Origin: Planctomycetota bacterium
GTDB lineage: Bacteria; Planctomycetota; UBA1135; UBA2386
NCBI GenBank assembly: GCA_020638655.1
Contig: JACKIC010000007.1
Coordinates: 351,849-415,848, forward strand
Direction: 5' to 3'
Length of the DNA: 64,000 nucleotides
The stretch's first letter is position 1; every line of letters begins with the position of its first letter. Both the position numbers and the translations under genes were made by a program. Of the stretch, positions 2,702-61,858 are shown in pieces. A model generated the notes under the pieces. The model was not told the DNA's origin and ran no database searches. It worked only from the letters and a program-made list of their open reading frames with translations.

Positions 2702-2768
2702 GTGTCGTTCGTCGCGGGGGCTTTGCTGGTGGCCAGGATGTGCGCCGGGCGGAGAGTCTAGGGCCTGA

Positions 2769-6895: not shown

Positions 6896-7097
6896 CTTCA
6901 CTGGAACGCGCGGGATGTCCGCTGCGGAGGAACCAATGTCGGCCTCCGACCACGGGGGCATGGTTTTTATTTCCGGTCGATGGAGCAAGGAAGTCGGAAG
7001 TCCTGGTTTCCGAGTTTCCGATTGCACCGTTTCGTCACCCAAGCTTCATTCCTTACGCGTCTTGTGAGGTGACTCGCGACACGCGCGCAGGCCCGGC

Positions 7098-7682: not shown

Positions 7683-10202
7683 ATGTCCCGCACCGAGTCC
7701 TCAGCCCTGCCGCACGCCGTGGGAATGGCGGCGCGGACCGACCCGTTCGTGCTCGCGGCGTGGCTGCTGTGGTGCGCGGTCGCCGGCGCCGGGCTGGGCG
7801 TCGTGCACGGTTGTTGTGAGGTGCTGTGGCCGGCGCTGCTGGTGAGCCTCGGCGCCGCGTGCTGCGCTCGCGCCCTGACCGAGAGCGCCGGCGGGCGCAC
7901 CTTCCTCGCGGGGCTCGTCGTCGCCGCGGTCGCCGCGGTGGCGGTGCTCGGCCTCGCGCGCGACGCCACCTGGCCGGGGCCCGCTGAGTTGCTGGCCGGC
8001 GCGGTCGCGATCGGGGCGGCCTTCGGCCGGATCGTCGGCGCGCGCGCGGCGCCGCGGACCAGCGGCGAACTCGCGGCCGCGATCGCCGGTGCGGCGCTGG
8101 CGGCGGCGGCCGCGCACTACACCCCGCTCGCCTGGTCCTGGTTCGGGCCGCAAGCCGTCGTCGCCGCGCCGCTGTTCGGGCTGTTGCTGCTGTTGCCGCT
8201 GCTCGCCGAAGAACGGGCCTCCGGGTGCGCCGGCGCGCACCCGACCGATCGCCTCGCGGTCGCCGTGGCTCTGGTCGCGCTGGTTGGCCTGGGGCTGTGG
8301 GGCACCGACGACGCCGCGGCGCTGCCGTGGCGCGTGGCGCCGGCCGTGCTGTTGCTGCATGGCGCGGCGCTGCCCAGCCGCCGCTTGGTCGCGCTCGGCG
8401 CGGTCGCGGCCCTGGCCGCCGCGCCGATGATCGGCGGCGGCGCGGCGCTGCCGTCGCGCTACACGACCCTGCAGCGCGACGGTCGCGCGACGGCCGTCTA
8501 CGACCGGGCGACCCAGGAACTGCAGTTGCGCTGGGACGACGTGATCCTCGACGGAGCCGGCCCCGATCGGCCGCTGCCGCAGTTGCTGGCGACGTTGTTG
8601 CGCGCGGCTCTGCTGCCCGGTGATCGCGTGCTCCTGGTCGGGCTCGGCTGCGGGCGCCTGCCCGCGGCGCTGGCCGAGGCCGGCATCGGCGAGGTCGACG
8701 CGCTGTCGTTGCGCGCGGTGTCCCCGGCGCTGCGCGCCCGCCTGCAGCTCGACGGCCCGGTGCCGCTGCCGGCCGGCAGCGCGCCGGTGGCGATGCTGCC
8801 GTGTGCGCACGACCGGCCCTGGCGCGCGCAGCTGCGGCGGTTGCCCGCGGGTTCGCGGCAGGCGATCGTGATCGGCGAGCCGCTGCACGAACTCGCCACG
8901 GCGCAGGTCACCTTCGAGGTGCAGCGCGATCTGCGCCGCGTCGCGGGCGCCGGCCTGGTGCTGCAACCGTTCTGGCTCGATCGCGTGCCGTGCGCGCGGT
9001 TGCAGGCCCTGCTCGCGGCGGCGGCGGCGGCGCACGCGTGGAACGGCGTGTTCGCGGTCGGCGACTGCGGCGTGCTGGTGAGCGCCGGTGCGCCGCCGGA
9101 CTTCGCGGCCCGCGGCGCGTGGTCGGACTGGCCCGCGTCGGCGCGCTGGCTGGCCCACCGCGCGCACCTGGGGGGCGCGGCCGACGCGGACCTGGCGCGG
9201 CTGATCGTCGTCGACGCGGCGGCGGTGCCCGCGGCAGTCAGCGAGTTCGACGCCCTGCCGGCGCTCGGGGCGGTCGATCGCGGCGAGGTGCTAGCGCTGC
9301 TCGCGCGCGCGCAGGGCGCGCCGCCCGACGCGGCGTCCTTGCCGCGGCCGGCGGACGACAGTCTGTTCGCCGGATGGAGCCGCGTCGAAGCCGAGACCCG
9401 CCGCGCGGTGGCGACGATCCGCACCCTCGACGGCGAGGCGCTGGGCATGGCGGCGGCCTGGGCGCGCGCGCAGCAGCTCGCGGCCGCCAGTCTGCCGCGC
9501 GGCGCCCCGCGCGCCGAACTGCAGGCGGCGCTCGGCCTGCCCGGCGCCGACGGCGTGCCGCTGCTCGATCCCGGGGCCGCGGCCCTGCGGGCTCATTCGA
9601 TCGACCCGACGTTGTTCCATGAGACCCCGCGGATCTTCGCCGACCTGCCGCGGCCGAAGGCGTCGGCCGGCGACCTCGAGGACCTGGCGCGGTTGCCGGA
9701 GCCCGATCGGCTGGCCGAGCTGGCCAGCGGCACCGACGCGTTCGCGACGGCCCTGCGGGCCCGGTTCCCCAGCGACTGCGCGCGGGCCCTGCTCGCGCGG
9801 CTGCAGGCCGGCCCGCTCGACGAGGGGGCCTCGGTGGCCCTGCGCGAGCTCGCCGATCCGTTCGTCCTGGCCGAGGCCGGCCGCGTCGTCGGCGTGCCGG
9901 CGCGGCGCGCCGAACTGCTCGCCTGGTGGCGCGGCGACCTGCCGATGCCGGTCGCGCTGCAGCCGCTGGTCGTCGAGGCGCCGCTGCGGCTCGCTGCCGC
10001 GCTGCCGCGCCGCCGCGACGCCCGCGCCATGCTCGCGCTCGCCGATCTGCTGCTGTCGGACGATCTGCAGGTGCGCATCCGCGCCGCAGCGGCGCTGCGC
10101 GACGGCCCGGGGGCGGCGATCGCCTACGACCCGGAAGGTCCACCCGAGCAGCGGATCAGTGCGGCGGCGCGGCTGCGCTCGTTGCATAATCGCGCGCCAT
10201 GA
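7683..10202 (+). CDS. Large polytopic membrane protein with a spermidine-synthase/class-I-methyltransferase-like central module and a helical-repeat C-terminus
   Basis: 839 aa. The N-terminal roughly 270 aa are repeated hydrophobic helices. The centre reads YDRATQELQLRWDDVILDG...GDRVLLVGLGCGRLPAALAEAG (Gly-rich Rossmann motif). The C-terminus has HEAT-like LLLSDDLQVRIRAAAALRDG. Its stop overlaps the lpxD start (ATGA). Confidence 0.6.
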   Translation: MSRTESSALPHAVGMAARTDPFVLAAWLLWCAVAGAGLGVVHGCCEVLWPALLVSLGAACCARALTESAGGRTFLAGLVVAAVAAVAVLGLARDATWPGPAELLAGAVAIGAAFGRIVGARAAPRTSGELAAAIAGAALAAAAAHYTPLAWSWFGPQAVVAAPLFGLLLLLPLLAEERASGCAGAHPTDRLAVAVALVALVGLGLWGTDDAAALPWRVAPAVLLLHGAALPSRRLVALGAVAALAAAPMIGGGAALPSRYTTLQRDGRATAVYDRATQELQLRWDDVILDGAGPDRPLPQLLATLLRAALLPGDRVLLVGLGCGRLPAALAEAGIGEVDALSLRAVSPALRARLQLDGPVPLPAGSAPVAMLPCAHDRPWRAQLRRLPAGSRQAIVIGEPLHELATAQVTFEVQRDLRRVAGAGLVLQPFWLDRVPCARLQALLAAAAAAHAWNGVFAVGDCGVLVSAGAPPDFAARGAWSDWPASARWLAHRAHLGGAADADLARLIVVDAAAVPAAVSEFDALPALGAVDRGEVLALLARAQGAPPDAASLPRPADDSLFAGWSRVEAETRRAVATIRTLDGEALGMAAAWARAQQLAAASLPRGAPRAELQAALGLPGADGVPLLDPGAAALRAHSIDPTLFHETPRIFADLPRPKASAGDLEDLARLPEPDRLAELASGTDAFATALRARFPSDCARALLARLQAGPLDEGASVALRELADPFVLAEAGRVVGVPARRAELLAWWRGDLPMPVALQPLVVEAPLRLAAALPRRRDARAMLALADLLLSDDLQVRIRAAAALRDGPGAAIAYDPEGPPEQRISAAARLRSLHNRAP

Positions 10203-49058: not shown

Positions 49059-50726
49059 ATGCTGCGTCGCGGAACGGGACCGCAGCCGGACGGCGCGGAT
49101 TGCCGAAGGAGGCTGACGAGCCCCTTCGTTCCGCACCGAGTGTCCACGACCGACCGAGTTCCCGCCGCACCGCGCCGTTCCTGCCCATCGCGGTGGGTTG
49201 GGCTCGCCGCGTCGCTGCTGGCCGCCGCGGCGATGCCGGCCCAGGCGCCCGCGCCGCCCGGCGCGTCGGTGCCCCGTGTGCACTGGCTGCAGGAAGGCGA
49301 GGTCCGCCTGCAGCGCGAGGACCCGCTGCTCGCGTGGCAGGCGTTCGAGCGTGCGCTCACCGAGGGCGCGGCCACCGCGTCCTGCCAGCTCGGCCTGGGC
49401 CGGGTGCATCTGATGCTGGGGCGCGCGACCGCGGCCGAACGCTGCGCCGCGGCGGCGTTGCTCGCCGAGCCCGACAACCAGAGCGGCATGGCCTTGCGGG
49501 TGCTGGCCCAGATCCGGGCGCGGGAGTTCGACGCCGCGGCGCGCACCGCGGGGCAGTTCGTGCTGCGCGTCGACGACCCGGGTGCCGAGTTGCTCGCGGC
49601 CCGCGGCTCGGCGCTGTTCCGGGTGCAGCGCACCGACGAGGCCGCCACCACCTACCAGGTCGTGGTGGCGCTCGAACACGACCACGCCGAGGCGCACCTG
49701 CGCCTGGGGTCGGGGCTGTTGCCGCCGACCGAGGTGCGCATCGGGGACGACCTGCGCGACGCCGTGGCCGCGGCGCGCAGCGGCGAGCTGCGGAAGTGCA
49801 TCACCACGCTGCAGCGCGTCGTGCAGCGCGAGCCGGGCAACCCGGTCGCCCACCGGCTGCTCGGTGAGGCGCTGTTCAACCAGCGGTTCGCCAGCAGCAT
49901 GGCGGCGACCGACGAGGCCTTCCGGGTGCTGGCGGCCGCGATGCCCAGGCCGCAGGTCAAGGACGTGCCGACCGCCGACTTCATCCGTGGCTACGCCGAG
50001 CTCGACCGCACCCGCGCCGCGGTGGTCGATGGCGCGGTCGCGCTGTTCGCGTCCCGCCTGCCCAAGCTGATCGCCGTCGGCGGCAGCCACGACCTGCTGC
50101 GCGAACTCGACCGGACCACCGACGCGCCGACGCGCGCGAACCTGCGCGGCCGGCGCACCTTCGACGGCCGGGTGTGGGACGACGTGCGCGGCATCGGCGG
50201 TCTGACCGCGGCGACCGGCATCGAGGCCCTCGACGAGAGCGCGCAGTTCGGCTTCGACACGCTCGCGCACGAACTCGCGCACCAGGTGCATTTCTTCGCC
50301 TTCAACCCGCTGCAGCGGGCGCGCATCAAGGCGCTCTACAACCGCGCGCTGCAGGACGACATGTGCCTGGACTACTACGCCGCGAGCAACGAGGCCGAGT
50401 ACTTCGGTCAGGGCGTCGAGGCGTTCCGCAGCCTGGCCAAACGGCCCGGCGGCGAGACCACACATGGGCACACGCGGTTCGAGCTGTACCGCGTCGACAA
50501 GCCGCTGCACGACTTCATCGCCGGCCTGGTCGACTTCGACCCGCTCGCCGGCAAGGAGCGCCCGGCGGTGCTGCGCGCCGCCTACGCGGTGGCGCTGCGT
50601 TGCGGCCGGCCCGCCGACGCGGTCACCGCCGCCGAGCTGCTGGACGCCGGCGCCGAGCGCGACCGCCTGCTCGAGCAGGCGCAGGAGGCGGTGCGCCAGG
50701 CCGAGCTGCGGATCGAAGAGCGCTGA
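49059..50726 (+). CDS. Secreted TPR-repeat protein with a C-terminal HExxH zinc-peptidase-like domain (MtfA/M90-like)
   Basis: TPR region, then TLAHELAHQVHFF and YYAASNEAEYFGQGVEAF, which resemble the M90 HEFAH...YGATNPAEFFAV pattern. Start uncertain. Confidence 0.55.
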   Translation: MLRRGTGPQPDGADCRRRLTSPFVPHRVSTTDRVPAAPRRSCPSRWVGLAASLLAAAAMPAQAPAPPGASVPRVHWLQEGEVRLQREDPLLAWQAFERALTEGAATASCQLGLGRVHLMLGRATAAERCAAAALLAEPDNQSGMALRVLAQIRAREFDAAARTAGQFVLRVDDPGAELLAARGSALFRVQRTDEAATTYQVVVALEHDHAEAHLRLGSGLLPPTEVRIGDDLRDAVAAARSGELRKCITTLQRVVQREPGNPVAHRLLGEALFNQRFASSMAATDEAFRVLAAAMPRPQVKDVPTADFIRGYAELDRTRAAVVDGAVALFASRLPKLIAVGGSHDLLRELDRTTDAPTRANLRGRRTFDGRVWDDVRGIGGLTAATGIEALDESAQFGFDTLAHELAHQVHFFAFNPLQRARIKALYNRALQDDMCLDYYAASNEAEYFGQGVEAFRSLAKRPGGETTHGHTRFELYRVDKPLHDFIAGLVDFDPLAGKERPAVLRAAYAVALRCGRPADAVTAAELLDAGAERDRLLEQAQEAVRQAELRIEER

Positions 50727-50779
50727 GCTTTCCCGCGGTTGGCTGTCACGATCGTGCCCCTTCTGGGCACAAGGCAGCG

Positions 50780-51454
50780 ATGACAGCTGTCGACATCTAC
50801 GGGCCGCGCGAGCGCATCCTGCAGTTGGGGGAGCCCCGGCTCAGCGACGCCGAATGCCTCGCGCTGCTGCTGCGCACCGGGGTCAGCGGCGAGGCCGCCG
50901 AGCAGATGGGCCAGCGGCTGCTGCGCCGCTTCGGCGGCCTGCCGGGGCTGGCGCTGGCCAGCGTTCGCCAGGTGGCCAAGGAACCCAAGGTCGGCGCGGT
51001 GCGCGCCGCGGCGATCGGCGCGGCGTTCGGTCTGGCGCGGCGGCTCGCCGAGTCGGCGCTGCGCCCCGGCGCCGTCGTGCGGCACAGCGCCGACGTGGCG
51101 CGCATCGTACGGGACTCGGTGCGCGGCTCGCGGCGCGAGAGCTTCTTCGCGGTGCTGCTCGACACGCGGCACCGCGTGCAGGGCCTGCACGTGGTCAGCA
51201 CCGGCGGTCTGGACGGGGCGCCCGTGCATCCGCGCGAGGTCTTCGGGCCGGCGCTGCGCGACGGCGCCGCGGCGATCGTGGTCGCCCACAACCACCCCTC
51301 GGGCGACGCCACGCCGAGCCCCGAGGACCGCGGCGTCACCGGGCGATTGCGCGAGGTCGGCGAACTCGTGGGCATCGAGTTGCTCGACCACCTGGTGGTG
51401 GGGGCCGAGCGCTACTTCAGCTTCGCCGAGGAGCGGTTCCTGGCGCTCGCGTGA
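50780..51454 (+). CDS. radC: RadC-family JAMM-motif protein
   Basis: 224 aa. HhH N-terminus (LSDAECLALLLRTGVSG) and IVVAHNHPSGDATPSPED (JAMM). Confidence 0.9.
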   Translation: MTAVDIYGPRERILQLGEPRLSDAECLALLLRTGVSGEAAEQMGQRLLRRFGGLPGLALASVRQVAKEPKVGAVRAAAIGAAFGLARRLAESALRPGAVVRHSADVARIVRDSVRGSRRESFFAVLLDTRHRVQGLHVVSTGGLDGAPVHPREVFGPALRDGAAAIVVAHNHPSGDATPSPEDRGVTGRLREVGELVGIELLDHLVVGAERYFSFAEERFLALA

Positions 51455-51594
51455 GCGCGCCGCGCCCGTCAGCGCTCTCCGCCGGGATCGCCGATGGGAT
51501 CGGTGCCCGAGCCCTTACGCAAGGCCGTGCGAGCATCGTCCTCGTCGCGGCATGGTTCCCGGCTACACTTCCCGACCTGCTCCGGATCCGCCAC

Positions 51595-52923
51595 ATGTCC
51601 ACGTCAGTATTCCAAGCCCGCCTCGCGGTCGCCCTCTTCGCCGCCAGCGCGACCACGCTGCTCACAGCCCAGGGCACGCAGGACGCGGCGCCCGTCGGCC
51701 AGCCCGCGCGCTGCGGCACGCCCAACACCTTCCAGGGCGGCTCGTTCCTCGACAACCCGGACTGCGACTTCTACCAGACCAACCCGAGCCAGACCTACGC
51801 GCCGACCAGCGTGCAGCGCATCCCGGTGGTCGTGCACGTGATCCAGAACAGCTCGGGCACCGGCAACCTCGGCAACGCCCTGGTGCAGAGCCAGATCACG
51901 GTGCTCAACGAGGACTTCCGCGCGATGAGCGGTACGGCGGGCGCGAACGGCGTCGACAGCCAGATCGAGTTCTTCCTCGCCACGACCGATCCGAACGGTC
52001 AGCCGACGACCGGCATCGTGCACTACACCAACAACACGTGGTTCACCGACGCCGGCGGCTACTACAACTCGATCGCCTGGAACCCGCAGCGCTACCTCAA
52101 CATCTACACCAACAACGCCGGCGGCGGCGGCGTGCTGGGCTACGTGCCGGCGATCCCGCAGTCGGGCAACATCGCGGGCACCGCGGCCGATCGTGTCGTG
52201 ATCCTCTATTCGGCGTTCGGTCGGCCGGGGCTCGGCGGCTCGCCCTACAACCTCGGCCGCACCTGCACGCACGAGGTCGGGCACTACCTGGGCTTGTTCC
52301 ACACCTTCGACAGCGGCTGCGGCTCGTCTTCGGCGTGTTACACGAGCGGCGATCGCATCTGCGACACCAACCCCGAGTCGCAGCCGCGCTACGGCTGCCC
52401 GACCACGGCGACCAGCTGCGGCAGCCTGGACCCGGTGCGCAACTACATGGACTACACCAACGACTCCTGCATGACCGGCTTCTCGGCCGAGCAGGTGCGG
52501 CGCATGCGCTGCACGTTGGTCAGCTACCGTCCCAACCTGGCGCAGCCGGCCGGGCCGATCGCGTCGGCGACCTCGCGCAGCGGCGCCGGCAACCTCAACT
52601 CGGCCTTCTTCGCGACCGCCCCGCGGCTCGGCATGCAGGCCTCGATGAACGTGGTGACGTTCAACACGCCCTACTCCCTGGCGATGGTGCTCGGCTACAC
52701 CGGCGCGGCCAGCCAGCCGTTCAACGGCTACACGGTCCTGATCGACACGCTGTCCGCGCCGGTGCTGCAGATGCCGCTGATGGCCAGCGCGACGGTGGTG
52801 TCCTGGACCTACGCCGTGCCCAACGATCCCGCGCTCGGGGGCCTGCAGATCAAGAGTCAGGGGCTGATGCTCGGCCAGACCTTCGCGCTCACCAACGCGA
52901 TGGATCTGGTGCTCGGCAACTGA
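51595..52923 (+). CDS. Secreted zinc metalloprotease, M43 (pappalysin/ulilysin-like) family, with an uncharacterised C-terminal domain
   Basis: Signal peptide MSTSVFQARLAVALFAASATTLLTAQG, CTHEVGHYLGLFHTF (HExxHxxGxxH), Met-turn NYMDYT, multiple Cys. Confidence 0.85.
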   Translation: MSTSVFQARLAVALFAASATTLLTAQGTQDAAPVGQPARCGTPNTFQGGSFLDNPDCDFYQTNPSQTYAPTSVQRIPVVVHVIQNSSGTGNLGNALVQSQITVLNEDFRAMSGTAGANGVDSQIEFFLATTDPNGQPTTGIVHYTNNTWFTDAGGYYNSIAWNPQRYLNIYTNNAGGGGVLGYVPAIPQSGNIAGTAADRVVILYSAFGRPGLGGSPYNLGRTCTHEVGHYLGLFHTFDSGCGSSSACYTSGDRICDTNPESQPRYGCPTTATSCGSLDPVRNYMDYTNDSCMTGFSAEQVRRMRCTLVSYRPNLAQPAGPIASATSRSGAGNLNSAFFATAPRLGMQASMNVVTFNTPYSLAMVLGYTGAASQPFNGYTVLIDTLSAPVLQMPLMASATVVSWTYAVPNDPALGGLQIKSQGLMLGQTFALTNAMDLVLGN

Positions 52924-52969: not shown

Positions 52970-54574
52970 TTGAACGACTCGTCCCGAACGTCAACCCGGA
53001 TGCCGACCGAAGCCCTGCCTGTCGAAGACCACCCCGCTGGCATGGATGTCCAGCCGCGGTTCACGGCGCGCCACGGGCTGTGGCTCATCGCGGCGACCCT
53101 GCTCGCGGCGGCGCTGCGGCTGTGGCACCTGGGCGAGTGGTCGTTCTGGGTCGACGAGGCGCACACCTGGCGCGACGTGACCTGGCCGCTGGAGGGCGGA
53201 TCGGGCTTCCTGGGCACCGACCGCGGCAAGTACCCGCTGGCTTTCCTGCTGCTGCACGGGCTGCGCAGCGCCGGCCTGCTCGGCGACGACGAGTTCTCGC
53301 TGCGGCTGCCGTTCGCGCTGCTCGGCATCGCCTCGGTGCCGCTGCTGGCGCTGTGCGGGCGCCGGCTCGTCGGCCCGACCGCCGCCGTGGTCGCGGCGCT
53401 GCTCTGCGCCGTGCACCCGTGGCACATCTTCTGGAGCCAGAATGCGCGCGGCTACATGCTCGTGTTCGTGGCCTCGATCGTGGTCGTCGACCGCGCCGTG
53501 TGCTGGACCCAGCATCGGCGCAAGCGCGACCTGGTCCTGGGCGTGCTCGCGCTGCTGGTCGCCGCGCTGAGCCACCCGACCGGCCTGATCCTCGGCGTCG
53601 GCGTGGGCGCGTTCGTGCTGCTGCTGCCGTTCGCGGGCGCCGACGGGCAACGCCTGCTGCTGGTCGCCGGCATCACCCTCGCGGTCGTGACCGCGGGCTC
53701 GATCCTGATGGCGAAGTTCGGGCCGTACCAGGAGTTCATGGGGTCCAAGGGCACCCCCGCGCCGCTGCACTTCCCGCAGACGGTGGCCTACTACTTCCGC
53801 CCGGCGCTGCTGCTGGCGGCGCTCGGGGGGCTGGTGCTCGCGGGGCTGTGGTGGTCGTCGCTGCGCGGCCTGCTGGTCACGTGCATGCTGCTGGCGCCGT
53901 TCATCGTCCTGCTCGCCATCGGCGGTTCGCTGGTCAAGGCGACCGCGCGCTATGCGTTCTGCACCCTGCCGCTGTGGTTGTTGCTGGCCGGCAAGGCCGG
54001 CGCGCCGTGGCTCGAAGGCGCGCGCGCGAAGGCCGTCCTGCGCACCCTGCCGGCGGCGCTGGTCGGCGCGATCGTCGCGTGCGACCTGGTCACCGAGACG
54101 ATCGCGTACCACCACGAGCAGTTCGGCCAGCGGCCGCGGTGGCGCGAGGCCTGCACGTTCGCGGCCGAGCACGCCCGGGCCCGTGGCGGGCGCGGGGCGC
54201 TGCGCGTGTTGACGATCCTGCACCCGCCCACGGCCTACTACCTGCAGCGCTACCACTGGACCGCGGAAGGCGCGAACATGTACCCCTTGGTCGATCTCGA
54301 GGCGCTGCTGAGGTCGCGCATCGAAGACGGGGAGGGGCCGGCGGGTGCGGAGCACCAGGGCCACCCCTTCCTGCGGCAGCAGCAGGCCGCCGCCGATTCG
54401 CGCGGCGAGGCGCTCGTGGTGATGGTGAAGCTGCCGGAGCTGGCGGAGATCGACGCCGGCGGCGCCTTCCTGCGGGCCTTGCAGGAGGGGTTCGAGCTGG
54501 CGCTCTACCTGCCGTGTTGGGTCGGCCCCAAGGACGAGAGCCTCTACGTGTACGTGCCGAGAGGAGAACGATGA
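52970..54574 (+). CDS. GT-C fold glycosyltransferase (GT39/ArnT/PMT-like), polytopic
   Basis: LRLWHLGEWSFWVDEAHTW (the DE motif in the first periplasmic loop), more than 10 hydrophobic helices, soluble C-terminal domain. The stop overlaps the next start (ATGA). Confidence 0.65.
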   Translation: MNDSSRTSTRMPTEALPVEDHPAGMDVQPRFTARHGLWLIAATLLAAALRLWHLGEWSFWVDEAHTWRDVTWPLEGGSGFLGTDRGKYPLAFLLLHGLRSAGLLGDDEFSLRLPFALLGIASVPLLALCGRRLVGPTAAVVAALLCAVHPWHIFWSQNARGYMLVFVASIVVVDRAVCWTQHRRKRDLVLGVLALLVAALSHPTGLILGVGVGAFVLLLPFAGADGQRLLLVAGITLAVVTAGSILMAKFGPYQEFMGSKGTPAPLHFPQTVAYYFRPALLLAALGGLVLAGLWWSSLRGLLVTCMLLAPFIVLLAIGGSLVKATARYAFCTLPLWLLLAGKAGAPWLEGARAKAVLRTLPAALVGAIVACDLVTETIAYHHEQFGQRPRWREACTFAAEHARARGGRGALRVLTILHPPTAYYLQRYHWTAEGANMYPLVDLEALLRSRIEDGEGPAGAEHQGHPFLRQQQAAADSRGEALVVMVKLPELAEIDAGGAFLRALQEGFELALYLPCWVGPKDESLYVYVPRGER

Positions 54575-56253
54575 CGAGCCTGTGGCGGTCGAAGTCCTGG
54601 TCGAAGTGGTTGCCCGCGGCGCTGGTCCTGTGGTGGTGCGGGGCAGCCTGTCAGGTGGCCGGCTCGGCGCCGACCGATGCGGCCCCGACGGCGGACGTCT
54701 GCGTCTACGGCTCGACCTCGGCCGGCGTGATCGCGGCGATCGAATGCGCACAGCAGGGGCACTCGGTGGTGCTGCTCGACTGCGACGGCTGGATCGGCGG
54801 ACTGACCACCTCGGGCCTGGGCGCGACCGATGTCGGCAACAAGGACGCGATCGGCGGGCTGGCGCGCGAGTTCTACCGCCGCGTGCGCAGACACTACGAC
54901 CGGCCCCAGGCATGGACCGCGCAGCGGCGCGACGAGTTCCGCGGCCGCGGTCACGACGCCGGCGGTGACGCGGCCTGGACCTTCGAACCGAGCGTCGCGC
55001 AGGCGGTGTTCGCCGAGATGCTGCGCGAGCAACGCGTCGAGGTGCGCACCGCGCGGCTCGACCGCGGCGGCGGCGGCGTGCACAAGGACGGCGCGGTGCT
55101 GCGCTCGCTGCGCTGCGAAGACGGCGATGTGGTCACCGCGCGCGTGTTCCTGGACTGCACCTACGAGGGCGACCTGTTGGCCGAGGCGGGCTGCTCGTTC
55201 GTCGTCGGCCGCGAGTCGAACGCGCGCTACGGCGAGACCCTCAACGGCGTGCAGACGAAGAACGCGACCAAACATCAGTTCACCGTGCGCGTCGACCCCT
55301 ACGTGGTGCCGGGGGACCCGGGCAGCGGCCTGCTGCCGCACGTGCAGCCCGGCGGCCCCGGAGCCGAGGGGGACGGGGACCACCGCGTGCAGGCCTACTG
55401 CTTCCGCATCTGTGCGACCGACGTGCCGGCCAATCGCTTGCCGTGGCCGAAGCCCGACGGCTACGACGCCGCCGAGTTCGAGGTGCTGCTGCGCTACTTC
55501 GAGGCCGGCAGCACGATGCCGCCGTGGCATCCGGTGTGGATGCCCAACCGCAAGACCGACAGCAACAACAACGGCGCGTTCTCGACCGATCACCTGGGCG
55601 CCAACTACGACTACGCGACCGCGGACTACGCGACGCGCGCGCGGATCGTCGCCGAGCACCGGCGATACCAGCAGGGCCTGCTGTGGACCCTGGCCCACGA
55701 ACCCCGCGTGCCGGCCAAGGTGCGCGCCGAGTTCGAGCGCTTCGGGCTGGCGCGCGACGAGTTCCGTGCGACCGACAACTGGCCGCCGCTGCTCTACGTG
55801 CGCGAGGGGCGGCGCCTGCTGGGGGAGCAGGTCGTCACCGAGGACCACTGCATGGGCCGCGCCGTCGCCGCGGACCCGGTCGGCATGGGCGCCTACGCGA
55901 TGGACAGCCACAACGTGCAGCGCTACGTCGCCGCCGACGGCAGCGTGCGCAACGAGGGGGACGTGCAGGTGCGCGTGCCGGCGCCCTACGGCATCTCCTA
56001 TCGGGCCCTCGTTCCGCAACGCGAGCAGGCCAGCAACCTGCTCGTGCCGGTGTGCGTGAGCGCGAGCCACATCGCCTACGGCTCGATCCGCATGGAGCCG
56101 GTGTTCATGGTGCTGGGGCAATCGGCGGCGATCGCCGCCGATCTGGCGCTGCGCGGCGGAATTGCCGTGCAGGACGTCGACTACGCGGCCCTGCGCGCCC
56201 GGTTGCTCGCCGCGGGCCAGGTGCTCGCCTGGCCGCCGGGCGAATCGCGCTGA
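54571..56253 (+). CDS. Secreted FAD-dependent oxidoreductase (FAD_oxidored / xanthan-lyase-like family)
   Basis: Signal/anchor WLPAALVLWWCGAAC, then VCVYGSTSAGVIAAIECAQQGHSVVLLDCDGWIGGLTTSG dinucleotide-binding motif. Confidence 0.75.
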   Translation: MTSLWRSKSWSKWLPAALVLWWCGAACQVAGSAPTDAAPTADVCVYGSTSAGVIAAIECAQQGHSVVLLDCDGWIGGLTTSGLGATDVGNKDAIGGLAREFYRRVRRHYDRPQAWTAQRRDEFRGRGHDAGGDAAWTFEPSVAQAVFAEMLREQRVEVRTARLDRGGGGVHKDGAVLRSLRCEDGDVVTARVFLDCTYEGDLLAEAGCSFVVGRESNARYGETLNGVQTKNATKHQFTVRVDPYVVPGDPGSGLLPHVQPGGPGAEGDGDHRVQAYCFRICATDVPANRLPWPKPDGYDAAEFEVLLRYFEAGSTMPPWHPVWMPNRKTDSNNNGAFSTDHLGANYDYATADYATRARIVAEHRRYQQGLLWTLAHEPRVPAKVRAEFERFGLARDEFRATDNWPPLLYVREGRRLLGEQVVTEDHCMGRAVAADPVGMGAYAMDSHNVQRYVAADGSVRNEGDVQVRVPAPYGISYRALVPQREQASNLLVPVCVSASHIAYGSIRMEPVFMVLGQSAAIAADLALRGGIAVQDVDYAALRARLLAAGQVLAWPPGESR

Positions 56254-56298: not shown

Positions 56299-57483
56299 AT
56301 GAAACACGCCGTGCGCATGGGGCTGATCCTGGGGGCGCTAGCCCCGCTCGTCGCGCAGGAGCCCGCCAAGTTCGAGCCCAGCGAATTCGTGCGCTTCGTC
56401 AAGGAGGGCGACGGCGGCCACCTCGACACGGCGGTCACGACCTACAAGAAGGGTGACGTCGAGGTGATCCTCTACGGCGCCGTGCACATCGCCGACGCGG
56501 CCGTCTACGAGGCGCTCAACGACCGCTTCACCACCTGCGACGCGCTGCTATACGAGCTGGTCGGCCCGGCGAACTACCGCCCCAGCCGCGACGTGGCCGA
56601 GCGCGGCACGAGTCCGATCTCGCTGCTGCAGCAGGCGCTCAAGAACTCGATGGAGCTGTCGTTCCAGCTCGACGCGATCGACTACTCGCCGGCCAACTTC
56701 GTGCACGCCGACATGACCCCCGAGGAGTTCGAGGAGAGCATGAACGAGCGCGGCGAGAGCATCCTCTCGATCATGATCGACATGATGCTGGCGGGCGCGC
56801 AGCGGCAGCGCGAGCTGGCCGAGGAGGGGGGCGAACCCGCGCCGGAGATCGACCTGGTCAAGGCGTTCCGTTCGGGAGAGGGCCGGCACACGCTGCGCAT
56901 GGTGTTCGCCGAGCAGATGCAGCAGATCGAGGTGATGGCCGTCGGGGGCAAGGACGGCAGCACCCTGCTCGAGGGCCGCAACGAGAAGTGCCTGAAGGTG
57001 CTGCGGGAGGAGCTCGAGAAGGGCCACAAGCGCATCGGCATCTACTACGGGGCCGCGCACCTGCCGCACATGGAGCGGCGCCTGGTGCAGGACATGGGTT
57101 TCGTGCGCACCGGCCAGGAATGGCTGGTCGCGTGGGACTGCAAGAAGCGCCCGGACCCGAAGTACAACCGCGCGCTCGTCAAGCAGCGCCGGCAGTGCCG
57201 CACCGAGCTGGACGCGCTGGCCCTGGTGGCGCGCGACTACCGCCGCAAGGTGCGCCCCGACGAGGTGCCCGACGTGGCGCGGCTGGCCTCGACGCCGCGC
57301 GAAGCCGACGCGATGTGGTACGCCGGCCCGCGCCAGGACCCGTGGGGCAACGACTACGTGCTGCGCAAGCGCAGCGTCGGCATCCGCTGGGAGGTGCTCA
57401 GCGCCGGTCAGGACGGCGAACTCGGCACCGACGACGATCTGGTGGCGCAGGAGCCGCGCGGCGGCGGCCTGTTCGGGCGTTGA
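56299..57483 (+). CDS. Secreted TraB/GumN-family domain fused to a GspG (major pseudopilin) C-terminal globular domain
   Basis: Signal peptide MKHAVRMGLILGALAPLVAQ. TraB/GumN-like ILYGAVHIADAAVY...SMELSFQLD...YYGAAHL. C-terminus ...DPWGNDYVLRKRSVGIRWEVLSAGQDGELGTDDDLV aligns with GspG DPWGRPYQY...FSLGADGKEGGEG.DADI. Confidence 0.65.
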   Translation: MKHAVRMGLILGALAPLVAQEPAKFEPSEFVRFVKEGDGGHLDTAVTTYKKGDVEVILYGAVHIADAAVYEALNDRFTTCDALLYELVGPANYRPSRDVAERGTSPISLLQQALKNSMELSFQLDAIDYSPANFVHADMTPEEFEESMNERGESILSIMIDMMLAGAQRQRELAEEGGEPAPEIDLVKAFRSGEGRHTLRMVFAEQMQQIEVMAVGGKDGSTLLEGRNEKCLKVLREELEKGHKRIGIYYGAAHLPHMERRLVQDMGFVRTGQEWLVAWDCKKRPDPKYNRALVKQRRQCRTELDALALVARDYRRKVRPDEVPDVARLASTPREADAMWYAGPRQDPWGNDYVLRKRSVGIRWEVLSAGQDGELGTDDDLVAQEPRGGGLFGR

Positions 57484-57507: not shown

Positions 57508-59109
57508 CTATTGCTTGCCGAGCTCGCGGGGCCGGTCCTTGTCGTTGGCCGCGTCCCAGCCGGTCCAGCACGCGGTGCGCGCGATCGCTTCCATGCTGAC
57601 GTAGTCGAGCTTGTCGGGCGAGTCGGTGACCTTGTGGTAGTCGGGGTGTTCCCCGTCGCAGAAGAACACCACCGGCACGCCCAGGCGCGCGAAGTTGTAG
57701 TGGTCGCTGCGTTGGTAGTACTGGTCGCCGCTGCTGAAGGTGATGCCGAACTTCGCGCCGATGGCGACGCCGTTCTGCACCAGGGTCGAGAACTTCTCGT
57801 GGTCCTGGCTCGGCGTGATCTGCATGCCGATCTTGCCGCTGCCGACCTTGTCGGCGTCGGTCACCGCGCGCCCGATCATGTCGATGTTGATGTCGGCGAC
57901 GATCTTCTCGAGCGGCCAGGTCGGGTTCTCGCTGAACCAGTGCGAGCCCCACAGGCCGAGCTCCTCGCCGCTGACCGACAGGAAGATCACCGAGCGCGCC
58001 GGCCGCTCGTCGCTCTTCGCGAACGCCTCGGCGATCTCGAGCAGGCCGGAGGTGCCGCTGGCGTTGTCGTCGGCGCCGTTGAAGACGTCCCCGTCGAGGC
58101 GCCGGCCGACGTGGTCGTGGTGCGCCGAGAACACCACGGCCTCGCTCTTCTTGTTGGTGCCGGGCAGGTAGGCGACGACGTTGCAGGCCTTGGCCTTGTC
58201 GTCCGCCTTGACGACGATCGTGAGCTTGCCGGTCGCCTTCTCGTTGGTGATCGCGGTCTTGGGCGCGCCGTCCTCGTCGAGTTCGACGCCGACGTGCTCG
58301 AGCAGCAGCCGGCTCTGCGCCGCCGACAGGATCAGCAGCGGGATGCGCATGCCCAGGTCGCGCCCGCCGGAGCCGTAGCGCAGCTGCGCGTGGTCGGGCA
58401 GCAGGCCTCGATAGTTGAGCGTGTTGCCGAACGAGCCCTGGTCGTCGAGCAGGCAGACGACGCCCGCGTCGGCGCCCTTGTTGGCGAGCTGTTGGGCGAC
58501 CTTGACGTAGCGGCCGACGGCTTGCAGGTCGTTGCCGGGGCCCTGGCGCCCAGCGCCCTCGTCGCCGTCGCGCGCGCGGGGCTTGCTGAACACGACGAGC
58601 GGGATCTTGCGCGAGAGGCCGCCCTGCACCTGGTCGGGCGCGCCGTTGCCGCACCACACGAAGCGGCCGGACAGGTTGACCTTGTCCTTGTCGGACGAGT
58701 GCAGCACGGCGAAGTCGGTGTTGAGCTTCTTGCCGCCGATGGTCAGCGCCGTGCTCTTGTCGAGGTAGACGCGCTCGAGCGGGTAGTTCTGTACGAAGCC
58801 CTTCTTGTCGCCCAGCGGCGACAGGCCGAGCCTGGCGAAGTGGGCGGCGATGTAGTCGGCGGTGGCCTGCTGGCCCGTGCTCGAGGTGTAGCGCCCGGCG
58901 CGCGCGTCGTCGGCGAGCCAGTAGGCGTGCGTGCGCAGATCGCCGCGGTCGATCCGGTCGAGCAGGGGCGGGGCGCCTTCGGGAAGCGCGGACGCCGGGC
59001 CGAGCTCGGGCAGCGTCGGCGCGGCGCCCGTCTTCGGCGCGTCCTGCGCCCACAGGGTGCAGCCGAGCAGCAGCGGCAGCCACGGGCCGGCGGTGTTCGA
59101 GGGTCGCAT
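57508..59109 (-). CDS. Secreted M28-family aminopeptidase with PA domain
   Basis: Signal peptide ...PWLPLLLGCTLWAQ, FSAHHDHVG, GADDNASGTSGLLE, SGEELGLWGS, and the C-terminal HPDYH metal ligand. Confidence 0.85.
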   Translation of the reverse strand: MRPSNTAGPWLPLLLGCTLWAQDAPKTGAAPTLPELGPASALPEGAPPLLDRIDRGDLRTHAYWLADDARAGRYTSSTGQQATADYIAAHFARLGLSPLGDKKGFVQNYPLERVYLDKSTALTIGGKKLNTDFAVLHSSDKDKVNLSGRFVWCGNGAPDQVQGGLSRKIPLVVFSKPRARDGDEGAGRQGPGNDLQAVGRYVKVAQQLANKGADAGVVCLLDDQGSFGNTLNYRGLLPDHAQLRYGSGGRDLGMRIPLLILSAAQSRLLLEHVGVELDEDGAPKTAITNEKATGKLTIVVKADDKAKACNVVAYLPGTNKKSEAVVFSAHHDHVGRRLDGDVFNGADDNASGTSGLLEIAEAFAKSDERPARSVIFLSVSGEELGLWGSHWFSENPTWPLEKIVADINIDMIGRAVTDADKVGSGKIGMQITPSQDHEKFSTLVQNGVAIGAKFGITFSSGDQYYQRSDHYNFARLGVPVVFFCDGEHPDYHKVTDSPDKLDYVSMEAIARTACWTGWDAANDKDRPRELGKQ

Positions 59110-59137: not shown

Positions 59138-60646
59138 TCAGCCGTCCGCGTCGTCGCCGCCGCTGTCGAGCAGCCGCCGCAGCCGGCCAGGATCGAGGTG
59201 CACGGTGAGGCTGCGGGTCTGCGACGGCACCACGGCCCCGGCCGGCAGCCCCTTGGGCTTGCGCACGTGCTTCTTGTGCGTGTAGACGACCTCGATGCGG
59301 TGCTCGCCGCGGGCCTTGCTGAAGTGCACGGCCAGGGTGCCGGCGTCGAGCAGCGTCTCGAGGCTCGCGGTCTTGTTCTTCGGCAGCCGGATCACGACGT
59401 GCGAGCCGGGGCGGCCGCCGCCGACGTGCAGCCACAGGTCGTTGCCATTGGCGACGCGCATCGTCAGCCGGTCGTTCTGTTCGTTGTTGCGGCCGACGAG
59501 GATCTGGTAGCCCTCGATCGAGACGAAGCGGCGGAAGTTCTCGCCGGGCGGCGGGGCCTTGGCCTTGGTGGCGGCGCGCGGGCGCGACGCGGTGGCCTTG
59601 GGGATCGCGCCGAGCCCCTCGAGCGCGCCGCGCCACTCCGCCAGCGCCGCGGCGGGCACCTCGGCGCCGTCGGCGGGCAGCTGCCGCAGCACTTCGTGCA
59701 GCGCCGCGGCCTGCGCCTGGGCCTCCTGTAGGCGACGTTCGGCGATCGCGCGACCGTCCTCGAGGCGGCGGGCCTTCTCGTAGAGCGCCTGGGCCTGGGG
59801 CATCACCGGCTTGCTCGGGTCGAGCTCGATGGTCGAGGAGCCGCCGCCGTCGACGTCGGGAACGGTCATGCGATCGGCGCCGCGCCGCACGGTGTGCGCG
59901 TAGGCGAGCATCAGGTCGGCGGTGCTGCGCAGTTGCGCGGCCCGGTCGGTGTCGGCCAGCTGGCGCGCCAGGCCCTCGACCTTGTGGCCGAGCTTGCCGA
60001 GCGCGCGCTGCGCGGCGCGTCGCAGGGCGTCGACGTCGGCGCGCAGGTCCGCGGTCTGGTCGAGTTCGCCGAAGTGCGCGTCGATCGCCGCCAGCACCGG
60101 TGCGGCGAAGCGCGGCGGCGGCTCGGGCGGTGGGGCGCCCGCGGCCGGCGGCGGCGCGTAGGCGTCGCCCGGCCGCAGCCGGCGCACCGCGGTGACCACC
60201 TCGCGCGACAGCACCAGGGCCTTGCCCTCGCTGTCGCACAGGCACCACAGGCCGCGGGAGCCGAACAGCTCGACGACCAGGCGTCGGTCGCCGGCGGGGG
60301 TGGCGAAGCCGAACTGGCAGCGCCGCTCGCCGTCGCTGGCCGCGATCCAGCGCAGTTCGGCGTCGGCCAGCTCCCTGGCCAGCAGGTCGGTCGCGGTGCC
60401 GCGGCGGCGCGCGTCCTTGCCGAAGCGTCGCGCGGTCAGCGTGACCCGGGCGCGGGGGCCGCCCGGGGCGACGTGCAGGAAGTGCTTGTGGCCGCCTTCC
60501 TGCTGCAGCACGAGCAGCAGATCGTCGTGGTTCGTCAGCCCGATCGCCTCGAGCACGCGCGCGCCGACCAGCGGCTGCAGCTCGGCGACGGCGGCGGCGA
60601 GCTCGCCCGCACTGAGCCCACGCGGGACCTCGGCGGGCGCGGTCAT
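59138..60646 (-). CDS. rqcH: NFACT-family protein (RqcH/FbpA-like ribosome quality-control factor)
   Basis: N-terminal NFACT-N, central coiled coil, C-terminal NFACT-R (DUF814): GYQILVGRNNEQNDRLTMRVANGNDLWLHVGGGRPGSHVVI. Confidence 0.8.
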   Translation of the reverse strand: MTAPAEVPRGLSAGELAAAVAELQPLVGARVLEAIGLTNHDDLLLVLQQEGGHKHFLHVAPGGPRARVTLTARRFGKDARRRGTATDLLARELADAELRWIAASDGERRCQFGFATPAGDRRLVVELFGSRGLWCLCDSEGKALVLSREVVTAVRRLRPGDAYAPPPAAGAPPPEPPPRFAAPVLAAIDAHFGELDQTADLRADVDALRRAAQRALGKLGHKVEGLARQLADTDRAAQLRSTADLMLAYAHTVRRGADRMTVPDVDGGGSSTIELDPSKPVMPQAQALYEKARRLEDGRAIAERRLQEAQAQAAALHEVLRQLPADGAEVPAAALAEWRGALEGLGAIPKATASRPRAATKAKAPPPGENFRRFVSIEGYQILVGRNNEQNDRLTMRVANGNDLWLHVGGGRPGSHVVIRLPKNKTASLETLLDAGTLAVHFSKARGEHRIEVVYTHKKHVRKPKGLPAGAVVPSQTRSLTVHLDPGRLRRLLDSGGDDADG

Positions 60647-60648
60647 CC

Positions 60649-61116
60649 CTACTTCTTGAGTTCCTCGACCGGGTCGTAGATCCAGCCGTAGGCGGCGTAG
60701 TCGTAGGCAACCAGGCCTTCGGGGAAGAACAGCTCGAGCTCGCGCGCGGCGGCCTCGGGGCTGTCACTGCCGTGCACCAGGTTGTAGCTGCGGCTGACGC
60801 CGAAGTCGCCGCGGATGGTGCCGGGGGCGGCGTCCGCGCCGAAGGTGGCGCCCATCAGGTTGCGGCAGATCTTGATCGCGTCGATGCCCTCGAGGGCGAG
60901 GGCGACCACCGGCGAGCTGGTCATGAACTTGACCAGGCCCGGGTAGAACTTGCGCTCCTTGTGGGCCTCGTAGTGCTTGGCCGCCAGCTCGGGCGTGATC
61001 TGCATCAGCTTCATCGCGGCGATCTTCAGGCCCTTCTGTTCGAAGCGGCTCAGGACCTGGCCGACGAGGCCCCGCTGGACGGCGTCGGGCTTGAGGAGGA
61101 TGAGGGTGCGTTCCAT
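60649..61116 (-). CDS. ndk: Nucleoside diphosphate kinase
   Basis: MERTLILLKPDAVQRGLVG..., NLVHGSDS (active-site His). Start is inside ORF 60649..61470. Confidence 0.95.
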   Translation of the reverse strand: MERTLILLKPDAVQRGLVGQVLSRFEQKGLKIAAMKLMQITPELAAKHYEAHKERKFYPGLVKFMTSSPVVALALEGIDAIKICRNLMGATFGADAAPGTIRGDFGVSRSYNLVHGSDSPEAAARELELFFPEGLVAYDYAAYGWIYDPVEELKK

Positions 61117-61171
61117 GTTCGGATCGGGTTCGGTTTGGATTCGAGGCTGGGCTGGCAGTGAAAGGGCGAAG

Positions 61172-61858
61172 ATGATAGCGACCATGACCGTCAGGCTGCG
61201 AGGCATTTCGCCGTTCCCTGGGCCCGCGAGGGGCCGTGCCGCTGGCGCGCGGGCGCGGCCCTGGCTGCTGCTCGCCGCGGCGGCGCTGCCCGGTCTGGCC
61301 GGTTGCCTCAGCGACCGCTCCAACACGATCTCGCGCACGGCGCGCATGCGGGAGATCGAGGCCGAGCGGGTCGTCGCCGACCGCGTGCAGCGCGAACTGG
61401 CGATCCTGCGGCAGCTCACCGAGGACAACCGCGAGTCGATCGCCGATGCCAAGGCGCAGTCGATCGCCACCAGTTCCGAACTGCGCGCGGTGATCGCTGC
61501 GCTGAACCACCAGCTCGATCAGCTCCGGGCCGCGGAGCAGGACCTCGAGGCCGCGAAGAAGCGCGCCGCCGCGATCGAGGCGGAACTCGCGCCGGTGCGG
61601 GCGCTCGAGGGCCAGATCGCCGAGCGCGACAAGCGCCGGCAGGAGCTCGCCGCGCAGCTCGCGGCGCTCGAGGCGCAGGTCGCCGCCGCCGAGCAGCAGC
61701 TGGGCGCGAGGCAGGCCGAACTGCAGCCCAAGCTGCAGGCGCTGCAGCAGCAGCAGGCCGCGATGGACAAGCTCGCGCAGGCGATCGCCGCGGCGCAGGC
61801 CGCGGCCGGGGCGATGGCGCCCGCCGCGCCGCCGGTGCCAGAACCTGCGAAGAAGTGA
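61172..61858 (+). CDS. Coiled-coil lipoprotein, Ala/Gln/Glu-rich
   Basis: LLLAAAALPGLAGC lipobox followed by about 170 aa of heptad-like A/Q/E/L sequence. Start is 61172 or 61184. Confidence 0.6.
   Translation: MIATMTVRLRGISPFPGPARGRAAGARARPWLLLAAAALPGLAGCLSDRSNTISRTARMREIEAERVVADRVQRELAILRQLTEDNRESIADAKAQSIATSSELRAVIAALNHQLDQLRAAEQDLEAAKKRAAAIEAELAPVRALEGQIAERDKRRQELAAQLAALEAQVAAAEQQLGARQAELQPKLQALQQQQAAMDKLAQAIAAAQAAAGAMAPAAPPVPEPAKK

Follow-up and report, generated by a model that had tools for sequence, protein, structure and literature searches.

What kind of protein carries the globular head of GspG, the major pseudopilin of the T2SS (type II secretion system), behind a signal peptide and a hydrolase-like domain, with nothing of the anchor by which a pseudopilin enters the membrane and polymerises? 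The question is raised by a gene in a 64,000-nucleotide stretch of DNA from a Planctomycetota bacterium (assembly GCA_020638655.1, contig JACKIC010000007.1, positions 351,849 to 415,848), the whole of which is called the window here. A sequence-only reading had described the product as a Sec signal peptide followed by a TraB/GumN domain and the GspG globular domain, without a prepilin anchor, and this architecture is borne out by Pfam, hydropathy and a motif scan. In the explanation that we regard as probable, the gene encodes an exported hydrolase of the TraB/PrgY/Tiki type, to which a pilin head has been added as a non-polymerising accessory module. The protein is not a structural component of the T2SS.

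The open reading frame (ORF) runs from an ATG to a TGA with GC contents of 0.95 at third and 0.42 at second codon positions, in a window of about 70% GC, and an identical 394-residue protein is present at NCBI (P0001), from a Planctomycetes metagenome-assembled genome (MAG). ORFs that overlap it in other frames are the usual artefacts of high-GC DNA. The start codon lies 45 nt past the stop of the upstream gene, and scans for promoters and terminators around the gene found none. A Pfam search, which had been proposed as a check on the architecture, places both T2SSG and TraB_PrgY_gumN above their gathering cut-offs, and the whole protein was modelled by AlphaFold2 (AF2) with a mean predicted local distance difference test score (pLDDT) of 83.7 and a predicted template modelling score (pTM) of 0.71. 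The two parts of the chain differ in charge, residues 21-289 being acidic (isoelectric point, pI, about 5.0) and the head module, residues 290-394, basic (pI about 9.0). Conservation was read from two alignments, one of 40 fusion proteins (A1) and one of 53 diverse N-domain proteins (A3); the coordinates of all features are collected in Table 1.

The C-terminal module is a true GspG homologue. It matches the Pfam family T2SSG (PF08334) over residues 312-380 with 28.1 bits, for a gathering cut-off of 21, and a profile built from 17 head modules, taken from the protein and its multi-module relatives, matches the GspG and PulG chains of the Protein Data Bank (PDB) over profile positions 6-92 of 98, with E-values from 2.8e-14 to 1e-11; the single-sequence match to solved GspG chains is weak (E of about 0.2). 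The head part of the AF2 model, in which the pLDDT is 88-96, retrieves GspG, PulG, EpsG and XcpT structures from enterohaemorrhagic Escherichia coli, Klebsiella, Vibrio and Pseudomonas in Foldseek (3g20, 5o2y, 1t92, 4lw9, 3gn9, 3fu1 and 2kep) at a probability of 1.00, with target-normalised TM-scores of 0.57-0.64 over 100-112 aligned columns. Whether the C-terminal similarity would reach significance had been named as a point on which the sequence-only reading could fail, and both the profile and the structural comparison settle it in favour of homology. The module has the long alpha1-C-like helix, the small beta-sheet, the DPWG motif and the calcium loop (D-x4-T-x-D-D) of GspG, PulG, EpsG and XcpT, and it is 35% identical to residues 46-134 of P0278, a genuine, leader-bearing pseudopilin, in which these residues are everything that follows the hydrophobic helix. 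Its alpha-beta loop is shorter than that of classical GspG by about 12 residues, seen as gaps in the profile alignment.

The DPWG motif and the acidic loop, both noticed in the sequence-only reading, are constant features of the family. The motif is invariant in the 40 relatives, and its D-x-W-G core is invariant in all 17 modules, tandem copies included. In the predicted Ca2+-binding loop, SAGQDGELGTDDD, the same 40 relatives show no variation at D372, D379 or D380, and at least 90% of them keep T377. D372, T377 and D380, together with D379, correspond with identical spacing to D117, S/T122 and D125, together with D124, of PulG and OutG, where these side chains are Ca2+ ligands, D124 possibly contributing (PMC13081927); the head may well bind Ca2+ in the same manner. 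Downstream of the loop, the chain ends in a tail whose consensus, QEP-R-x-GGL-x-x-R, is found in most single-head members of the family, some of which end in QEPRGR/K instead, and whose last residues (390-394) have a pLDDT below 50. The tail was considered as a PEP-CTERM or GlyGly-CTERM sorting signal and rejected, because no transmembrane segment follows it.

The protein has none of the features by which a pilin inserts into the membrane, is processed as a prepilin and polymerises. The prepilin motif, searched as G[FMYWILV][TS][LIVM][LIVMT]E, occurs neither in the protein nor in any six-frame ORF of the window, as the sequence-only reading had said of the G-F-T-L-I-E leader in the protein itself. 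Across residues 270-310 the 19-residue Kyte-Doolittle means lie between -0.35 and -2.1; there is no hydrophobic alpha1-N, and the head begins directly after ...WDCKKRPDPKYNRALVKQRR. In contrast to GspG, the protein thus lacks the prepilin leader, the N-methylated Phe, Glu5 and the hydrophobic alpha1-N; its head lies C-terminal to an enzyme domain, is repeated two to four times in relatives, and is encoded outside any T2SS gene cluster. Without a class III leader and without a hydrophobic alpha1-N it cannot polymerise as a pilin, and this claim of the sequence-only reading also stands. That the protein is nevertheless a genuine major pseudopilin, as its NCBI and JGI names and its T2SSG match would have it, has next to no chance of being correct: the missing leader and helix and the 290-residue enzyme domain ahead of the head are joined by a match to the gspG equivalog model TIGR01710 of only 22.3 bits, against a cut-off of 88.85, which covers model positions 91-129 alone. 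The protein is not a GspG, and its database name is an artefact of domain-based naming.

The support for the N-domain as a divergent member of the TraB/PrgY/GumN family, within the TIKI superfamily, comes from a profile match and from its conserved residues. TraB_PrgY_gumN (PF01963) is matched with 27.7 bits by the whole protein and with 29.4 bits by the domain alone, for a gathering cut-off of 26.8. Among the 53 diverse relatives it is the only Pfam family matched, in 39 of them and with a best E-value of 1.9e-8, and in one relative, P0172, the alignment extends over positions 13-260 of the 263 in the model. Two GxxH motifs, the glutamate of L-Y-E-L (E86), the H-A-D of N-F-V-H-A-D and the pair R227-N228 recur in both alignments with the invariant positions given in Table 1, and G60 and W279 are likewise invariant in the fusion family and in the diverse stand-alone relatives, which are 34-59% identical. 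The formulation of the TIKI motifs as GxxH is said to be that of Sanchez-Pulido and Ponting in 2013. The domain-only model is confident (pLDDT 91.6, pTM 0.89), with strands that alternate with helices. The hallmarks of the superfamily are a set of two histidines and a glutamate, written as 2His/2Glu in RRSP and Ere, together with a basic residue that is conserved close to the active site (PMC6254334). The two GxxH motifs and E86 would supply the two histidines and one glutamate of the catalytic-type set here, and R227 would be the basic residue, at a putatively equivalent position. In its two GxxH motifs, its glutamate and its Arg(-Asn), the N-domain resembles Tiki1/2, PrgY, TraB, TRABD, the erythromycin esterases, ChaN and RRSP, and its predicted fold, an alpha/beta arrangement with a parallel sheet flanked by helices, may be that of the superfamily. 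It differs from other TIKI members in being very divergent and in having the additional invariant N-F-V-H-A-D, an N-terminal beta-hairpin and a pilin head at its C-terminus. On these residues, the domain is putatively a hydrolase.

The N-terminus fits a Sec signal peptide. Residues 8-19 are the sole hydrophobic stretch of the protein, with a Kyte-Doolittle mean of 2.24 over the h-region, the order of n-, h- and c-regions is typical, and the A-Q-E that follows the h-region recurs across the alignment of 40 relatives. Export by the Sec pathway to the periplasm or to the outside is the probable consequence. Two cysteines, Cys231 and Cys281, do not vary in the fusion family, and a third, Cys300, is shared by 32 of the 40 members; this pattern suggests a disulfide and fits an extracytoplasmic protein. 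Such a location would be shared with Tiki and PrgY; the present protein would be soluble and carry a signal peptide, whereas PrgY is membrane-localised and Tiki is membrane-tethered (reportedly GPI-anchored).

How far the fusion and its parts are spread was determined by database searches. In a word-indexed search, 559 proteins reached E<=1e-3 among the candidates scored, and the best 120 of these, all from Planctomycetota MAGs, are near-full-length relatives (91-100% query coverage, 58-87% identity) of 362-585 residues, mostly 390-420; many of them bear the name "type II secretion system protein GspG" at NCBI or "T2SS protein G" at JGI. When 1.84 billion representatives were searched exhaustively with a profile, 3031 matched at E<=1e-3, of which 766 reached E<=1e-30. 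The head is covered in only about 12 of the top 150 representatives, the others being proteins of about 280-350 residues that match by the N-domain alone, and about 750 clusters at 50% identity are put as N-domain alone. At least 565 species-representative genomes encode a relative, and the fusion was found in about 30 of the best 80, all of them uncultured Planctomycetota. The head-less form was found in Pirellulaceae, Phycisphaerales, Tepidisphaeraceae, Verrucomicrobia and a few Gammaproteobacteria, several of its members with lipoprotein-type signals. The sequence-only reading was to count as refuted if the architecture proved widespread and already annotated, and this holds by half: it is widespread within one Planctomycetota clade, with more than 550 matches, and its only annotation is the misleading name GspG.

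The head behaves as a mobile domain that can be repeated, and it most likely originated by capture from a pseudopilin gene. Longer fusion representatives have two to four tandem leaderless heads after the same N-domain (four in P0121, three in P0030), an arrangement that resembles an accessory or binding unit open to multiplication more than a one-to-one mimic. Outside the fusion family the nearest relatives of the head are ordinary pseudopilins of 130-150 residues (N_methyl and T2SSG). A second group consists of small proteins of 100-170 residues with one or two heads (P0280, P0283, P0296, P0340/P0352/P0390, P0316, P0324 and P0378) and a lipobox, a signal peptide or a plain transmembrane anchor, from Aminicenantales, Polyangiaceae, Kofleriaceae and Longimicrobiales; the Aminicenantales form is present on 25 contigs. 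These share with the present protein the same head, with D-x-W-G and a G-P-D...T-A-D-D loop, and the absence of a prepilin leader, and unlike it they have no enzyme domain. A search with the module profile in a database of 5.8 billion proteins, the reach of which is limited by a word-index prefilter, returned mainly ordinary pseudopilins and small proteins and no other enzyme fusions. Both domains are of known kinds; in the literature searched for TraB/GumN with pseudopilin, for GspG-like or T2SSG proteins and for pseudopilins of Planctomycetes, no description was found of the fusion, nor of tandem or stand-alone leaderless heads.

If the head is GspG-like, does the protein work with the T2SS? 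The gspDEF genes that the sequence-only reading had located at 1.5-7 kb are indeed there: a compact cluster of gspF, gspE and a secretin gene occupies 1478-7042 of the minus strand, about 50 kb from the fusion gene. By the prepilin motif scan of the window, no pseudopilin gene lies beside this cluster; as no leader motif was found elsewhere in the window either, the pilin genes of the machine must lie elsewhere. Neither the 33 fusion loci nor the other 52 of the 85 loci searched encode a GspD, GspE or GspF homologue within 6 kb of the gene, and no T2SS or pilus genes were found near three stand-alone leaderless heads from other phyla (L086-L090 being the loci of the small-head proteins).

These loci bear directly on the proposal, made with the first description of the gene, that the head docks onto the binding partners of the pseudopilus or acts as a decoy. 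Such partners would be the assembly platform, the periplasmic domains of the secretin or the minor pseudopilins, and the head would either deliver the TraB domain to the T2SS or, as a decoy, modulate secretion. The head is a close copy, in structure and in sequence, of real GspG heads, the genome has gspD, gspE and gspF, and the alpha3-beta1 loop and the surface of the GspG head have been implicated in T2SS specificity (PMC13081927). The distance to gspDEF, the lack of T2SS synteny in the fusion loci, the tandem heads of relatives and the leaderless heads of other phyla that are unlinked to T2SS genes all speak against docking, as does the shortened alpha-beta loop. Most of the established contacts between pseudopilins and the T2SS machine, moreover, are made through the alpha1-N helix, and the present protein has no such helix. 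The proposal found no support in the analysis, and we consider it unlikely.

A different link to the same machine would make the head an export tag, the enzyme being a T2SS substrate that is recognised by its pseudopilin-like surface. The protein has a Sec-type N-terminus and its genome a T2SS; T2SS substrates fold in the periplasm and have no universal linear signal. We know of no precedent for a pseudopilin-like surface in this role. The lack of T2SS synteny counts against it, and so do the abundant head-less relatives: their signal peptides are ordinary or of the lipoprotein type (P0124, P0172), which suggests an N-domain that needs no tag for its work in the periplasm or at the membrane. 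We hold this to be the least likely of the three roles considered for the head in connection with filaments or their machine, and improbable in itself.

In the third, the head would be a recognition domain in its own right, one to four copies of which direct the enzyme to pilin-like proteins or filaments by head-to-head contact, and a TIKI protease in the periplasm would trim, recycle or quality-control pilins and pseudopilins. The characterised members of the TIKI/TraB group have N-terminal or short hydrophobic peptides as their targets, in the case of Tiki the N-terminus of Wnt and in that of PrgY a pheromone derived from a signal peptide. The heads look derived from the clade's own pseudopilins, as the identity to P0278 indicates, tandem heads would raise the avidity for a polymer, and Planctomycetota are generally known to be rich in pilin-like proteins. 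The idea is purely speculative and no pilin genes adjoin the fusion gene; the stand-alone N-domain, furthermore, is far commoner than the fusion, and the basic job of the enzyme therefore needs no pilin head. It is quite unlikely, if marginally less so than the export tag. Were it true, type IV filaments in a pilin-rich phylum would be subject to a kind of control not known before, and a head that targeted either pilin-like proteins or parts of the T2SS would offer a new handle on the regulation of type IV filaments.

The explanation that we prefer, an exported TraB/PrgY/Tiki hydrolase with a pilin head as accessory module, may be set out as follows. The enzyme would be exported by the Sec pathway and be periplasmic or secreted, and its N-domain would most likely be a metal-dependent peptidase or esterase. 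The head would be the Ca2+-stabilised globular part of a GspG, captured without the class III leader and alpha1-N; as such it can neither enter the membrane, nor be cleaved by prepilin peptidase, nor polymerise. It may bind a partner or substrate, or stabilise the enzyme. An accessory role is suggested by analogy, because TIKI enzymes are known to carry appended domains, such as the N lobe of RRSP.

RRSP, the Ras/Rap1-specific endopeptidase of MARTX toxins, has a TIKI core that is localised, and recruits its substrate, with the help of an appended domain on which it depends and which is itself non-catalytic (PMC6254334), and a TIKI core with an appended domain is the working model for the head described here. 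The likeness ends with this arrangement: the appended domain of RRSP is an unrelated, N-terminal four-helix domain for membrane localisation, and RRSP itself is a cytosolic toxin effector and metal-independent. Modular type IV pilins (preprint 10.1101/2021.01.27.428410) combine a pilin and a functional domain in one polypeptide, for example in Streptococcus sanguinis PilB with its von Willebrand factor A (vWA) module. The present protein joins the same two kinds of domain in one chain and is their inverse, in that modular pilins, with leader and alpha1-N retained, still polymerise and show the additional domain on the filament, whereas here both are dropped and the head is the appended part.

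Several points weigh against this explanation. The PF01963 match of the whole protein exceeds its cut-off by just 0.9 bits and is marginal. The best Foldseek match of the N-domain is a subunit of Tetrahymena complex IV (probability 0.89/0.80, TM-score 0.2-0.3). A TraB-family subunit is reported for this complex, and the matched chain may correspond to it. The Ere-family entries 2rad, 2qgm and 6xcq were matched weakly (probability <=0.18). Foldseek with the whole model gave no confident match for the N-domain, and modelling of the domain alone raised the model confidence and left the PDB matches weak; sequence searches of the N-domain against the PDB, with the single sequence and with profiles from A1 and A3, found no homologue and returned a casein kinase at chance level (E of about 0.6). 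The signal peptide was called by eye and from hydropathy. The absence of gene linkage is compatible with physical contact to T2SS or pilus proteins, and Planctomycetota genomes encode very many pilin-like proteins elsewhere. Finally, the conserved neighbours of the gene include housekeeping genes (NDK, 6PGD, NFACT), and the context provides no functional clue.

The consequences are practical as well as evolutionary. Hundreds of proteins of about 400-630 residues are misnamed "type II secretion system protein GspG" and cannot be pseudopilins, a misnaming by which the number of T2SS genes counted in Planctomycetota MAGs can come out too high. The Ca2+-binding head of a pseudopilin can live outside filaments, in an enzyme fusion, in tandem arrays and in small lipoproteins, an under-appreciated fate of pilin domains. 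A large and strongly conserved branch of the TraB/Tiki group is defined, with about 770 clusters (50% identity, E<=1e-30), and its invariant residues are clear targets for mutagenesis.

Table 1. Features of the fusion gene, its product and its surroundings, in positions of the window (aa, residues of the product)
Feature	Position	Strand	Evidence or remark
Fusion gene (394 codons and TGA)	56299-57483	+	ORF, coding statistics, NCBI protein, two Pfam domains, AF2 model
Signal-peptide-like N-terminus, MKHAVRMGLILGALAPLVAQ	56299-56358	+	Basic n-region, 12-residue h-region, A-Q-E at the likely cleavage site
TraB/PrgY/GumN (TIKI-superfamily) domain, aa 27-289, including the family-specific N-terminal beta-hairpin	56377-57165	+	PF01963, motifs
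First GxxH motif, G60-A-V-H63	56476-56487	+	H63 invariant in 40 fusion and 53 diverse N-domain proteins
E86 (in L-Y-E-L), candidate catalytic Glu	56554-56556	+	Invariant in both alignments
H136-A-D138 (in N-F-V-H-A-D), family-specific; candidate additional metal or catalytic ligands	56704-56712	+	Invariant in both alignments
R227-N228, conserved basic residue typical of TIKI enzymes	56977-56982	+	Invariant in both alignments; putative positional equivalent
Second GxxH motif, G251-A-A-H254	57049-57060	+	G251 and H254 invariant in both alignments
Leaderless GspG-head module, aa 290-388 (alpha1-C-like long helix, shortened alpha-beta loop, small beta-sheet, Ca loop)	57166-57462	+	PF08334, profile, Foldseek
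DPWG motif, aa 347-350	57337-57348	+	Invariant in 40 relatives
Predicted Ca2+-binding loop, aa 368-380	57400-57438	+	Spacing identical to PulG/OutG ligands
Conserved C-terminal tail QEPRGGGLFGR, aa 384-394	57448-57480	+	Low model confidence
PMT_2-type (GT-C) glycosyltransferase, upstream, co-directional	52970-54574	+	PF13231
FAD-dependent oxidoreductase, upstream, co-directional	54604-56253	+	PF12831, E = 1e-108
gspF (T2SSF)	1481-2701	-	Pfam
gspE (T2SSE with MshEN domain)	2772-4751	-	Pfam
Secretin gene (Secretin and Secretin_N)	4490-7042	-	Pfam

Around the fusion gene, the order in the 33 fusion loci is PMT_2 -> (FAD oxidoreductase) -> fusion <- (M28 peptidase) <- NFACT <- NDK <- 6PGD. Of the fusion loci that have upstream DNA, most have PMT_2 upstream in the same orientation, and it was not detected in the most divergent ones, L028-L031; the FAD oxidoreductase stands between PMT_2 and the fusion gene in about half of the fusion loci. 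The shared direction of these two genes was considered as an operon clue and set aside, and the block is read as inherited synteny because unrelated housekeeping genes are mixed into it and PMT_2 was not detected upstream in L028-L031. Co-transcription of the fusion gene with the two upstream genes is possible. When the neighbours of 51 stand-alone N-domain genes were clustered, no shared functional partner emerged, and the recurrent ones were lineage-specific only (TIM-barrel isomerase-like, ArfB, PQQ-propeller and aminotransferase proteins).

Some of the neighbouring genes merit a description of their own. An 819-residue predicted exported peptidase with a pappalysin-type M43 domain (50464-52920, plus strand) flanks the region, and a 533-residue M28 peptidase, also predicted to be exported (57508-59109, minus strand), is convergent with the fusion gene, a position that it keeps in roughly every second fusion locus. 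The next gene (59138-60646, minus strand) encodes a 502-residue NFACT-family (RqcH-like) protein that matches only the C-terminal third of the NFACT_N model, in addition to NFACT-R_1, and adjoins ndk clade-wide; its product may be an N-terminally reduced bacterial ribosome-quality-control factor. The longest ndk ORF (60649-61470, minus strand) has 273 codons, with the NDK domain beginning at residue 120; NCBI and the related loci call a protein of 155 residues, and the upstream extension is probably an untranslated artefact of high-GC DNA. Far from these genes, an 839-residue ORF (7683-10199, plus strand) in a stretch of 78.7% GC at 8-10 kb has no Pfam match and is extremely rich in Ala, Leu, Arg and Gly (A 24%, L 15%); it has several N-terminal hydrophobic segments and a G-L-G-C-G-R-L-P motif reminiscent of a methyltransferase or spermidine-synthase-like fold.

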